Positions 11,300 through 19,731 of a stretch of DNA of 64,000 bases are shown here, in pieces. Under the pieces are notes generated by a model that saw only the letters and a list, made by a program, of their open reading frames with translations, did no database searches and had not been told where the DNA came from. Numbering within the stretch: position 1 is the first letter of the stretch; each line of letters opens with the position of its first letter. The stretch comes from Clostridia bacterium (GTDB lineage: Bacteria > Bacillota > Clostridia > TANB77 > CAG-465), in NCBI GenBank assembly GCA_017536445.1, contig JAFXHJ010000012.1, positions 2,348 through 66,347 of the forward strand, in the 5' to 3' direction. A program made the position numbers and the translations under genes.

Positions 11300-11828
11300 T
11301 CCTTTATACTATATATGATATGGCAATGCGATAAGTAAATTTTGTGGCTTGAGGTCAAGTCGGATTTCCCTACAAACTACTACTCGTTGCCTTGTAGCGG
11401 TTTCCCTTTAAAGCTCGCATCTAGGTGTCGCCACACTAGCTACATGATTACCACTTAGTCCACACTGTAATCCTTAACACACTCACTGTATTGTGACAGT
11501 CTAGAGGTTTTCCCTAACATCATTTCACTATCCTTATTCGCTTTTGCAAGACTAATTTCAAAAACATAGTATCATTTATCCCGAAGTCTCACGCACGACT
11601 AGCTACAATTATATAGTACTCTCTATATAAAGGTTTACACATTATGTGAAGCTGAAAGAGGATATTATATATATGCCATTATATCTTTACCTCGATCTTA
11701 ACCCTAATACTTACGCCCCAATCTGGGCGAATGCAGCATAAACACTAGGTGCCATTAATATGCTATATGATGGATTTTTAAGCCCACCTTGAGATAGGTA
11801 CTCTTTTGACTAGAATACTGTGCCATAC
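11300..11828 (-). ncRNA. ole: candidate OLE (ornate large extremophilic) RNA
   Basis: Roughly 520-nt GC-enriched non-coding region with no ORF. It is transcribed from a consensus promoter (below) and reads through into the oapA-like gene. Boundaries are approximate. Confidence 0.5.
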
Positions 11829-11835
11829 AATATAT

Positions 11836-11864
11836 ATTATAACATTTTTAAAAATGATTGTCAA
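11836..11864 (-). promoter_or_regulatory. sigma-A promoter for the OLE-like RNA / oapA transcript
   Basis: Minus strand reads TTGACA-17 nt-TATAAT (rc of plus 11859-11864 and 11836-11841). Confidence 0.7.
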
Positions 11865-17908: not shown

Positions 17909-18020
17909 TTGGAAACATCCTTTCAAAATATAATGATACCTATATTATACCACTTTTGGGTATGTTATGTCAACGTGCAAAAGTTTTTTAAAAAATTTTA
18001 ATTTTTTTAAGAAATTCTAT

Positions 18021-18049
18021 TGACATTCGTTCGTAAATTAATTATAATA
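18021..18049 (+). promoter_or_regulatory. sigma-A promoter for the tRNA operon
   Basis: TTGACA-17-TATAAT about 20 nt upstream of the first tRNA. Confidence 0.65.
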
Positions 18050-18070: not shown

Positions 18071-18147
18071 GGGCCTTTAGCTCAGTTGGTCAGAGCAACC
18101 GGCTCATAACCGGTGGGTCCAAGGTTCGAATCCTTGAAGGCCCACCA
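18071..18147 (+). tRNA. tRNA with CAT anticodon, most similar to tRNA-Ile2 (lysidine, CAU) rather than elongator Met
   Basis: GGGCCTTTAGCTCAGTTGGTCAGAGC...GGCTCATAACCGG...GGTTCGAATCC...CCA. Close to Bacillus tRNA-Ile(CAU) GGACCTTTAGCTCAGTTGGTTAGAGC. Encoded CCA. Confidence 0.8.
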
Positions 18148-18176: not shown

Positions 18177-18483
18177 GGGCGGGTGTCCGAGTGGCTAAAG
18201 GAGGCAGACTGTAATCTTTGGTTCAAACCTAAATTTGCAGCTCATGCAAGTGATTGTGTGATGATAATCTGGCTAATTCGGGGAACTCTTAACAGGTAAT
18301 GCTGATGACAATCCCGAGCTAAAAGATTTAATCTTTGAGTGTAGAGACTTTATACCATGTATCTCCTATCGAGATAAAGAGAAAGTCCAGACTACAAACA
18401 TTATTTAATGGTAACGAAAGTTATGGTAGTAAGAAATCTGTTAGCGTACGCTTACGATGGTTCGAATCCATCCCCTCCCACCA
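18177..18483 (+). tRNA. tRNA-Tyr (GTA) interrupted by a group I intron in the anticodon loop
   Basis: 5' exon GGGCGGGTGTCCGAGTGGCTAAAGGAGGCAGACTGT (18177-18212). 3' exon AAATCTGTTAGCGTACGCTTACGATGGTTCGAATCCATCCCCTCCCACCA (18434-18483). Joined they give a class II tRNA with a long variable arm and anticodon GUA. One C4-U69 acceptor mismatch. Confidence 0.8.
18213..18433 (+). ncRNA. group I self-splicing intron (221 nt, no ORF) within tRNA-Tyr
   Basis: P/Q/R/S core elements are present: AATTCGGGGAA (P4 5'), AATCCCGAGC (P4 3'), GTGTAGAGACT (P7 5', identical to the Azoarcus tRNA-Ile intron) and AGTCCAGACTACAAAC (P7 3'). P6 (AAAGAT/ATCTTT) and P8 (TATCTC/GAGATA) hairpins are also present. The 5' exon ends in U, and an IGS GCAG can pair with exon CUGU including the U.G wobble. 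The intron ends in G. Confidence 0.75.
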
Positions 18484-18485
18484 AA

Positions 18486-18515
18486 TGCAAGTATTCAACA
18501 TACTTGTATTTTTTT
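18486..18515 (+). terminator. intrinsic terminator after the tRNA operon
   Basis: GCAAGTAT-TCAAC-ATACTTGT followed by TTTTTTTATTTT. Confidence 0.7.
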
Positions 18516-18708
18516 ATTTTCAAGTAGAGATTTAATCAATACATCAACCATTACTATTACTTCAAAATATTCAAAGTATAAAAGAACTCTATTTTAGTTT
18601 TATGTAACCTTTTACTCTCTTTTATTGCTATTTACCTATTTCTGTGATATAATATTCTCACTTTGATACAAAGAACCAAAAAATAATTATTTAAAGGAGA
18701 TTTAAAGT

Positions 18709-18891
18709 ATGGAGTTCAAAGTAGTTCAAGTAGAAGCAGCAACATCTTTCGCAGGCGCAATCAAAAAGGTTGAAAAAGAAGTAAACGAACTTCTTAAGGA
18801 AGGCTGGCAGTTAAGAGGTAATCTTAAGATCGTTCCTCACACCGAATCTACATATTTCGTTGTATATCAGGTTCTCACAAAAGAATCTTAA
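18709..18891 (+). CDS. DUF4177-like small protein
   Basis: 60 aa beginning MEFKVVQVE...LLKEGWQL. Extended -10 promoter TGATATAAT upstream. Paralogous to the next ORF. Elevated GC. Confidence 0.55.
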   Translation: MEFKVVQVEAATSFAGAIKKVEKEVNELLKEGWQLRGNLKIVPHTESTYFVVYQVLTKES

Positions 18892-18905
18892 CCAAAGGAG
18901 TTCAT

Positions 18906-19106
18906 ATGGAATATCAAGTAGTTTATGCACAAGGCGGCGAATTTTACAAAGTTGCCGAAGAGCTCGAGAAAAAGGTCAACAAGCTTCTTAAGGAAGGATG
19001 GGCCCTTCAAGGTGGTGTTACTCAATCAATAACAAAATACGAGTGGCATTTTATGTCTCAAGCAATGGTTAAAATGTCAGCCCGCAATGAGATACGTCAA
19101 CTTTAA
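18906..19106 (+). CDS. DUF4177-like small protein (paralog)
   Basis: 66 aa beginning MEYQVVYAQ...LLKEGWALQG. RBS AAGGAG. Confidence 0.55.
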   Translation: MEYQVVYAQGGEFYKVAEELEKKVNKLLKEGWALQGGVTQSITKYEWHFMSQAMVKMSARNEIRQL

Positions 19107-19122
19107 TCAAGGAGAGATACAA

Positions 19123-19731
19123 ATGACAGAACCTAAAAACTCAATCATTTGCCCAGTATGTGGCAAAACCGCTAAGCGGTTACCCATTCATGTAAATCCA
19201 CTTTACAGATGTGATGAATGTGGTTTTCTTTCAAGCGACGAAAACGTTGTAGACATCTCGTACAAAGATCATGTGTCCGCTCCACTTTCCAATCTTTATC
19301 CCCATAAATTTGTACTTTATGGATTCTATCCTACAAGTAATATTTCCGAGGAACAAATTACGATTCCTTCTATGGAATCTTTTTTGCAGGGTCTTAAGAT
19401 TAAAGACGCTACTTTACAAAATATCTTTATGACAAGATATTCTGCTATGGATGCATGTAAAATGTCTGCAACCTTAAACGACTGGAAAGAAACACAGACG
19501 CTTTGGTTTAACGGAGAACCTTACAACAGATACAGTGATGAATACACCGACCTCATTACAAAAGCCTACGATGCACTCTTTGAAACAAATGTTATTTTCA
19601 GAGAAATCGTACTTCCTAAGTTCAAGGGCAAAATCTTGATTCACACAATTGGCAAAGATTCTGAATCCGATACAGTTCTTACCGAAGCAGAATTCAGACA
19701 CCAGCTTAACAGACTTATGAAAAGGCTGTAA
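19123..19731 (+). CDS. hypothetical protein with N-terminal CxxC...CxxC zinc ribbon
   Basis: CPVCGK...CDECG motif. RBS AAGGAGAG. Probably one operon with the DUF4177 pair. Terminator hairpin at 19738-19770 (AACAAGCAGTAGTT-AAAACTACTGCTTGTT). Confidence 0.55.
   Translation: MTEPKNSIICPVCGKTAKRLPIHVNPLYRCDECGFLSSDENVVDISYKDHVSAPLSNLYPHKFVLYGFYPTSNISEEQITIPSMESFLQGLKIKDATLQNIFMTRYSAMDACKMSATLNDWKETQTLWFNGEPYNRYSDEYTDLITKAYDALFETNVIFREIVLPKFKGKILIHTIGKDSESDTVLTEAEFRHQLNRLMKRL

Follow-up and report, generated by a model that had tools for sequence, protein, structure and literature searches.

A tRNA-Tyr(GUA) gene of Clostridia interrupted by a 221-nucleotide group I intron

A stretch of 64,000 nucleotides (nt) from a contig of a Clostridia bacterium (JAFXHJ010000012.1; the whole stretch is hereafter the window) carries, at positions 18177 to 18483 of the forward strand, a tRNA-Tyr(GUA) gene that is interrupted in its anticodon loop, and we regard it as practically certain that the interrupting sequence is a group I intron. 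ARAGORN in intron mode called tRNA-Tyr(gta) at exactly these coordinates, with an 86-nt mature tRNA and a 221-nt intron at the junction actgt|intron|aaatc, and the ligated exons were again called tRNA-Tyr(gta) without intron mode. The 5' exon (18177 to 18212, forward strand; 36 nt) comprises the acceptor strand GGGCGGG, the D arm, the anticodon-stem strand GCAGA and the loop bases C32, U33, G34 and U35, the last of which is its final base. The 3' exon (18434 to 18483, forward strand; 50 nt) opens with A36, A37 and A38 and continues through the anticodon-stem strand UCUGU, a long variable arm, the T arm and CCCUCCC to A73 and an encoded CCA. The gene is split between U35 and A36, and ARAGORN together with direct reading recovers the features of a class II tRNA-Tyr, namely the GUA anticodon, the variable arm AGCG-UA-CGCU and A73 before CCA. 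The intron itself (18213 to 18433, forward strand) begins with AAUCUUU and ends with GUAAG, its terminal (omega) G being position 18433. No open reading frame (ORF) of 30 amino acids (aa) or more lies wholly within 18213 to 18433, and hence no candidate homing endonuclease. An initial annotation of the locus, made from the DNA letters alone, had proposed this gene and these intron coordinates, a canonical class II tRNA-Tyr rebuilt from the two halves, an ORF-less intron, an insertion between positions 35 and 36 and a low-GC Firmicute as host. All of these proposals hold, the insertion site through the ARAGORN junction and the insertion edges described below, and the host through the closest relative of the locus, L006, which is labelled as a Clostridia metagenome-assembled genome (MAG).

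The boundaries of the intron are also set by alleles that lack it. Metagenomes were scanned for the predicted ligated junction, and the uninterrupted tRNA-Tyr genes found in this way sit in the same arrangement as the window gene, paired with a tRNA that has a CAU anticodon. Locus L034, which has the intron, and locus L176, which does not, are 93.5% identical over 7.2 kilobases (kb) and align base for base through the promoter, the CAU tRNA, the spacer, the exons and the terminator, the sole difference being a 221-nt gap at CTGT|AAATC. The edge at the terminal G18433 is thereby fixed independently by this comparison and by ARAGORN. The ligated exons of the intron-bearing locus L008 are identical at 86 of 86 positions to the uninterrupted tRNA-Tyr genes of L149, L164, L168 and L206, and the ligated exons of other intron-bearing loci also match some uninterrupted genes at 86 of 86. 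Among intron-less genes, those most similar to the ligated window exons match at 79/86 and 78/86 positions; the latter is L213, the nearest syntenic locus without the intron, which has, in this order, YchF (80% identity), a CAU tRNA and a tRNA-Tyr with the acceptor stem of the window gene.

A full secondary structure of the intron was derived by hand and then tested on alignments of related introns; all of its elements lie on the forward strand. In the P1 hairpin (18209 to 18240), the exon bases CUGU and the first intron bases AA (18209 to 18214) pair with the guide UUGCAG (18235 to 18240), with U35 opposite G18237 at the splice site. This U.G pair is invariant in eight of eight introns of tRNA-Tyr genes (Tyr introns), while the flanking pairs vary between A-U and G.U, and the P1 extension stem (18217 to 18222 with 18227 to 18233) shows a compensatory change from G-C to A-U. 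P2 (18242 to 18261) has 8 base pairs (bp), five of them changed on both sides among the Tyr introns, and is capped by a GUGA tetraloop of the GNRA type at 18250 to 18253. P3 joins UCUGG (18268 to 18272) to the alignment-supported strand CCAUG (18355 to 18359). P4, UCGGGG/UCCCGA (18278 to 18283 with 18312 to 18317), encloses P5 (18287 to 18295 with 18302 to 18308), which contains a receptor-like internal loop, UUAA/AU, and the P6 hairpin (18318 to 18326 with 18332 to 18340) carries four compensatory pairs. P7, the guanosine-binding helix, has G(A)GACUU as its 5' strand (18344 to 18350, with A18345 bulged), pairs with 18383 to 18388 and forms a pseudoknot with P3. The P8 hairpin UAUCUC/GAGAUA (18360 to 18376), with two compensatory pairs, is followed by J8/7 AAGAGA and the P7 3' strand AAGUCC (together 18377 to 18388). 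The P9 domain spans 18391 to 18430 and is closed by P9, ACUAC/GUAGU (18391 to 18395 with 18426 to 18430); it contains the hairpins P9a (18399 to 18410) and P9b (18411 to 18424), the latter with a GAAA tetraloop at 18416 to 18419.

J6/7 reads GUGUA, as it does in the Azoarcus row of the seed alignment of Williams (2020; bioRxiv 10.1101/2020.01.27.920355), and the string GUGUAGAGACU is identical in the window and in the Azoarcus tRNA-Ile2 intron row of that alignment. With the U.G pair in P1, the terminal G, a covarying P3/P7 core and the P7 and joining strings, the intron has the features of the IC3-like group I introns of bacterial tRNAs. Much of this fold had been anticipated in the initial annotation. 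The P4 strands that it had pointed out (UUCGGGG/UCCCGA) are present and form P4, the P7 5' strand is the one that it had matched to Azoarcus, P6 and P8 are hairpins as it had said, the final U of the 5' exon faces the G of GCAG, and the last base of the intron is G. The P3-P7 pseudoknot, whose absence it had named as a refutation, is backed by covariation. One assignment had to be divided: of AGTCCAGACTAC, which had been given as the 3' strand of P7, the AAGUCC part (18383 to 18388) does pair with G(A)GACUU (18344 to 18350), and the ACUAC part (18391 to 18395) is the 5' strand of P9.

Homologous introns were collected by scanning one genome per GTDB species for the core pattern AATTCGGNGAA ... 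AANNCCGAG ... GTAGAGACT, which returned at least 120 loci, almost all of them interrupted tRNA genes according to ARAGORN in intron mode. The isotypes among the matches listed were Leu(UAA) (29), CAU-anticodon tRNAs (26), Thr(UGU) (12) and Tyr(GUA) (7), with fewer of others, a tally that is approximate and includes some wrong calls. The seven Tyr loci among these matches (L006, L008, L034, L044, L071, L078 and L108) all come from MAGs of uncultured Clostridia from animal and human guts. Their introns are 220 to 229 nt long and occupy the same site as in the window, and in six of the seven loci a CAU tRNA lies upstream, as it does there. When the window intron was aligned with these seven, 99.6% of the 558 cells were paired and 17 of the 70 pairs had changed on both sides; slid controls gave 0 to 4 such pairs, and none of 500 shuffles reached 17. 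The compensatory changes are located in the P1 extension, P2, P3, P6, P8, P9a and P9b and, in the wider family, also in P7. A covariance model built from the eight Tyr introns and searched against 100 non-Tyr loci found all 100 of them, nearly all at full length, with 25 to 135 bits. In the resulting 100-intron alignment, to which the P7 pseudoknot was added, 95.1% of cells were paired and double changes occurred in 58 of 70 pairs, although this alignment was fitted to the structure and is hence biased towards it. P3 was paired in 98.8% of cells across the 100 relatives, with extensive covariation, and the outer pair of P7 was A-U in 43, U-A in 38, G-C in 12 and C-G in 1. Collectively, these comparisons support the predicted group I fold of the intron very strongly.

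Several observations weigh against this reading. The 5-bp P3 contains a C18269 x U18358 mismatch that is found in the window only. The acceptor stem GGGCGGG/CCCUCCC is not fully paired over its 7 bp, with C4 facing U69 (positions 18180 and 18476). Rfam Intron_gpI gave no group I match in the window at its gathering threshold (50 bits). Furthermore, a core-only model, R2, trained on 31 introns of the Leu(UAA), Arg(CCU) and CAU types and on no Tyr sequence, matched 18265 to 18390 at 76.4 bits (E about 1e-17), but its training introns had been fetched with the core pattern of the window itself, so this 76-bit score is partly by construction. With regard to P3, L006 has C-G at the mismatched position, and the seven remaining Tyr introns all form the pair, as do all 100 wider relatives; the mismatch may lower the stability of folding, or may be an assembly error. 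With regard to the acceptor stem, C4 x U69 is common to the window, L006 and the uninterrupted L213 gene, and the other Tyr-intron loci have U4.G69. Because both L006 and the intron-less L213 carry it, the acceptor mismatch looks like a trait of the lineage and not like a sign of decay. Window and L006 are 98.6% identical in their introns and 97% identical in YchF. The window copy is nevertheless likely to splice in vivo.

The intron could be a true group I intron that is inefficient in the cell, requiring a protein cofactor or particular conditions and acting as a checkpoint on the supply of tRNA-Tyr. Such a role would be in keeping with an AT-rich intron (36% GC), with modest peripheral contacts (L2 is a GUGA loop, P8 a plain helix and the P5 receptor a variant) and with the weakened P3 of the window copy. 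However, the locus offers no hint of a cofactor or sensor, with neither an aptamer nor an ORF, and the intron is built like the small tRNA introns that splice themselves, of which that of Azoarcus is an example; we therefore consider a checkpoint unlikely. The P3 mismatch, at a pair that is formed in all 107 relatives, together with C4 x U69, could instead point to a decaying, splicing-defective intron in a tRNA-Tyr pseudogene, with tyrosine decoded by another tRNA-Tyr elsewhere. The copy number of tRNA-Tyr was viewed within the 64 kb of the window only, which has no second tRNA-Tyr, one other tRNA and one intron. Such decay is very unlikely, since the intron differs from that of L006 at only three places, one of which keeps a P2 pair (A-U to G.U) and another of which is a loop indel, the catalytic-core strands are all intact, the exons match those of L006 at every position, the consensus promoter is intact and the acceptor mismatch is also present in the uninterrupted L213 gene.

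A search with Rfam Intron_gpI (RF00028) had been put forward in the initial annotation as a check; it is silent at the gathering cut-off, as stated above, and a permissive local search gave a match to the whole model at 18214 to 18407, which is sub-threshold at 28.6 bits (E = 2e-5). In the same kind of search, introns of the Arg, Leu and CAU types reached only 54 to 61 bits, and none of the remaining Tyr and Thr introns of Clostridia was reported at E <= 0.01, so a sub-threshold score is to be expected here. The low score stems from the Rfam model itself. Williams (2020) states that none of the group I seed sequences of Rfam is bacterial. ARAGORN in default mode missed the split tRNA-Tyr, and default ARAGORN and Rfam at gathering threshold missed the window gene and all seven homologous Tyr loci. 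ARAGORN in intron mode mislabels some loci, as in the case of L242, which it called Tyr and which on inspection is a tRNA-Thr(UGU) gene. tRNAscan-SE is, by its authors' statement, not designed for the detection of group I introns.

Custom models score the window at 76 and 259 bits, the R2 core model had no match in four intron-less loci, and 100 shuffled versions of the window never matched the core pattern. Folded on its own, the intron has an unexceptional minimum free energy (z = -1.6), a value that is uninformative because nested folding would not be expected to single out a pseudoknotted ribozyme. The idea that the likeness to group I is a product of chance or degeneracy, and that the insert is a miniature inverted-repeat transposable element, a protein-spliced intron or a group II fragment, can draw on the silence of Rfam at gathering threshold and on this z score, but it has next to no probability, as a nested fold would not be expected to reveal such a ribozyme, the intron has full-length matches to group I models, U-1 and the terminal G coincide with the indel edges set by the intron-less relative, and the compensatory changes across the helices, together with the model scores, already refute it.

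The mechanism that we propose takes its fold from sequence comparison and its chemistry from the intron family, that is, from the standard two-step group I pathway. Very probably, this is a chromosomal tRNA-Tyr(GUA) gene of an uncultured gut Clostridia bacterium, co-transcribed with a CAU tRNA and split between U35 and A36 by an ORF-less, IC3-like group I intron. The CAU tRNA and the tRNA-Tyr would be transcribed together from the consensus promoter, and the precursor would fold with the exon bases CUGU on the guide GCAG, leaving a U.G wobble at the splice site. P3-P8 and P4-P6 would form the core and P7, G(A)GACUU/AAGUCC, the guanosine pocket, while the GAAA loop of P9b (L9b) probably docks into the receptor-like loop of P5 and the GUGA loop of P2 (L2) probably docks onto P8. 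Free guanosine would attack after U35, the terminal G18433 would then occupy the pocket, and the 3' exon bases AAAU would pair with the guide bases AUUU (P10). Ligation of the exons would yield an 86-nt class II tRNA-Tyr. The intron has no homing endonuclease; it would be inherited vertically and would be gained or lost as a precise unit.

The surrounding transcription unit is compact. A sigma-70 promoter at 18020 to 18048 (forward strand), with TTGACA and TATAAT separated by a 17-nt spacer and 12 of 12 hexamer matches, precedes the pair of tRNA genes, and its counterpart is kept between L034 and L176. The upstream partner of tRNA-Tyr is a tRNA with a CAU anticodon at 18071 to 18147 (forward strand), called tRNA-Met and scoring 74.5 bits against the Rfam tRNA model. 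The pairing of a CAU tRNA with tRNA-Tyr is seen in intron-bearing and intron-less relatives alike. By eye, the acceptor and D arms of the upstream tRNA (GGGCCUUUAGCUCAGUUGGUCAGAGC) are tRNA-Ile-like, and this tRNA may be a lysidine-modified tRNA-Ile2. Downstream of tRNA-Tyr, direct reading finds an AT-rich hairpin followed by a T run at 18487 to 18516 (forward strand; -6.8 kcal/mol), which is likely to be the terminator of the two-tRNA unit. A scan for consensus terminators was silent at 18487 to 18516, as the hairpin has too few G-C pairs. Rfam matches named "Plastid-ycf2," "Plastid-psbI-rps4" and "SpF41" were dismissed, as they resemble tRNA and fall on the tRNA exons or on the strand opposite them. 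Those to the two plastid models lie antisense to the tRNA genes, at 18071 to 18145 and 18433 to 18480 of the reverse strand, and recur likewise in L006, L008 and L034; antisense tRNA sequence seems to be part of both models and to produce spurious sub-threshold matches.

Outside tRNA-Tyr, the nearest relatives of the window intron among the matches listed are introns of tRNA-Thr(UGU) genes in MAGs of gut Clostridia and Bacilli (L007, L015, L019, L060, L064, L066, L077, L080 and L109). All nine are 72 to 78% identical to the window intron; in eight of them the aligned stretch of about 166 to 173 nt runs from P3 to the 3' end, and in L007 it is 132 nt long. Eight score 124 to 135 bits with the Tyr model, L109 being outside that search. 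In other isotypes among the matches listed, similarity to the window intron is confined to core stretches of at most 61 nt. The Thr introns have the same guide core, UUGCA, and the same exon target, UGU|AA, as the window. They differ from it in being inserted one base further 3', after U36 (UUGU|AA) instead of after U35 (CUGU|AA), in having unrelated P1 and P2 sequences, and in carrying canonical receptors of the CCUAAG/UAUGG type in P5 and P8. In at least three loci, tRNA-Lys and tRNA-Glu immediately precede the Thr(UGU) gene with the sister intron. The Thr(UGU) genes, too, would escape default ARAGORN and Rfam. A transposition between the tRNA-Thr and tRNA-Tyr anticodon loops, which offer the same UGU|AA target, would fit these comparisons, and the shared target together with the shared guide would point to reverse splicing.

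A lineage-specific pattern led to five contigs of IMG/VR, whose viral label is that of the database. In L245 (6861 to 7089, reverse strand) and L246 (1170 to 1398, forward strand), the intron scores 165.6 bits with the Tyr-intron model, which is above any bacterial non-Tyr locus, and lies inside a protein-coding gene; the flanking ORFs are family-A DNA-polymerase-like, and HNH-like ORFs are nearby. L243 (646 to 862, forward strand; 153.7 bits, again above any bacterial non-Tyr locus) comes from a 273-kb contig, where it is one of an array of tRNA genes and encodes tRNA-Leu(UAA). L242 (3685 to 4332, reverse strand; IMGVR_UViG_3300037454_000175) is the tRNA-Thr(UGU) gene mentioned above, in a tRNA array; it is interrupted after U36 by a further intron of this lineage, which has an ORF for a 137-aa HNH endonuclease in its L5 loop (Pfam PF01844, 22.6 bits). 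These contigs suggest that phages carry this intron lineage; a blastn search of phage genomes gave only short core matches. A 2014 review placed every phage group I intron known at that time in a protein-coding gene. The sister introns in Clostridial tRNA-Thr(UGU) genes and the relatives in viral contigs may be new. Taken together, a possible jump between Thr(UGU) and Tyr(GUA), the presence and absence of the intron at about 93% identity, the relatives in viral contigs and an HNH-bearing copy that possibly drives homing allow the tentative suggestion, on balance doubtful, that the lineage continues to spread between gut Clostridia and the phages that infect them.

The core pattern also matched L059 (1573 to 1773, reverse strand), which scored 34.9 bits with the Tyr model and comes from a contig assigned to the MAG of a Methanosarcinaceae archaeon. 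ARAGORN found no interrupted tRNA there, and the match may reflect either a bacterial contig placed in the wrong bin or a group I intron in an archaeon.

Elsewhere in the window, an OLE (ornate, large, extremophilic) RNA is present at full length at 11304 to 11842 of the reverse strand (286 bits against a gathering threshold of 50; model positions 1 to 616), which is consistent with an anaerobic Firmicute host. Directly downstream of tRNA-Tyr, three small ORFs lie at 18709 to 19731 (forward strand). Two of them (60 and 66 aa) have weak or borderline matches to DUF1737, and the third (202 aa) matches the phage protein family Phage_30_3 at 96 bits. All three are conserved in L006, at 80 to 87% identity, and they may form a small phage-derived cassette beside the tRNA genes.

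The practical consequence concerns annotation. Because default ARAGORN and Rfam miss the gene and tRNAscan-SE is not designed for group I introns, these MAGs of gut Clostridia would appear to be without a tRNA-Tyr, and estimates of tRNA complement and completeness would be distorted. If this is the sole tRNA-Tyr gene of the organism, the activity of the ribozyme is essential for translation. The locus adds a Clostridial animal-gut lineage to the group I introns catalogued in bacterial tRNA genes, a list that has grown of late, and it provides a test case for the spread of ORF-less introns by reverse splicing or homing, with one ribozyme body in two tRNAs, presence/absence alleles and viral relatives. 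Overall, its worth is modest, practical for annotation and a lead on intron mobility.

The kind of intron described here is already known, and the window provides a further example of it. In reviews up to 2014, bacterial tRNA group I introns were confined to cyanobacteria and alpha- and beta-proteobacteria, in four host tRNAs; this list was widened to 21 settings by the preprint of Williams (2020). Its seed alignment holds Mba143.Tyr.4Ug, which is spliced at CUGU|AA, after U35, and has the same host tRNA, site, U-1, terminal G and guide UUGCAG as the window intron. It is of a different ribozyme lineage, with a different P4, AACGGUG/UACCGU, and a P9 that is a single hairpin, and a global alignment to the window gives only 146 matches over 225 nt. 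A 2026 study in mSystems (PMC13011429) reports a Tyr(GUA) intron at 35/36 in one Patescibacteria genome, accurate splicing of 35/36 introns demonstrated experimentally for tRNA-Asn and tRNA-Asp, the escape of such tRNA genes from standard annotation and, among 4,934 complete genomes, one of 28 introns at 35/36 in Bacillota_A. The 35/36 site and the escape from annotation are shared with the window, whereas those introns are mainly in tRNA-Asn and tRNA-Asp and in another phylum, and the experiments concerned neither a Tyr intron nor the lineage of the window. In view of Mba143.Tyr.4Ug and the Bacillota_A case, the initial annotation had overstated how unusual the site and the host are. No description of a gut Clostridia lineage of tRNA-Tyr introns was found in the portions of these sources that were covered, which left out the host tRNA of the Bacillota_A case and the phylum counts of Williams.

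Other close parallels are the IC3 introns of Azoarcus pre-tRNA-Ile2(CAU) and of cyanobacterial and plastid tRNA-Leu(UAA), which, like the window intron, are small, ORF-less and inserted in the anticodon loop, with a GNRA L2 loop. They share with it the core strings AAUUCGG-GAA, CCGAGC, GUGUAGAGACU and AGUCCAG, and the tRNA-Leu introns in the alignment of Williams have the same P9/P9a/P9b(GAAA) layout. They differ in host and site, the Ile2 intron being inserted at 36/37 and the Leu introns at 34/35. Unlike them, the window intron has CUAA instead of AAA in J3/4, a variant of the 11-nt receptor in P5 and a P8 without a receptor, is AT-rich and is sub-threshold in Rfam.

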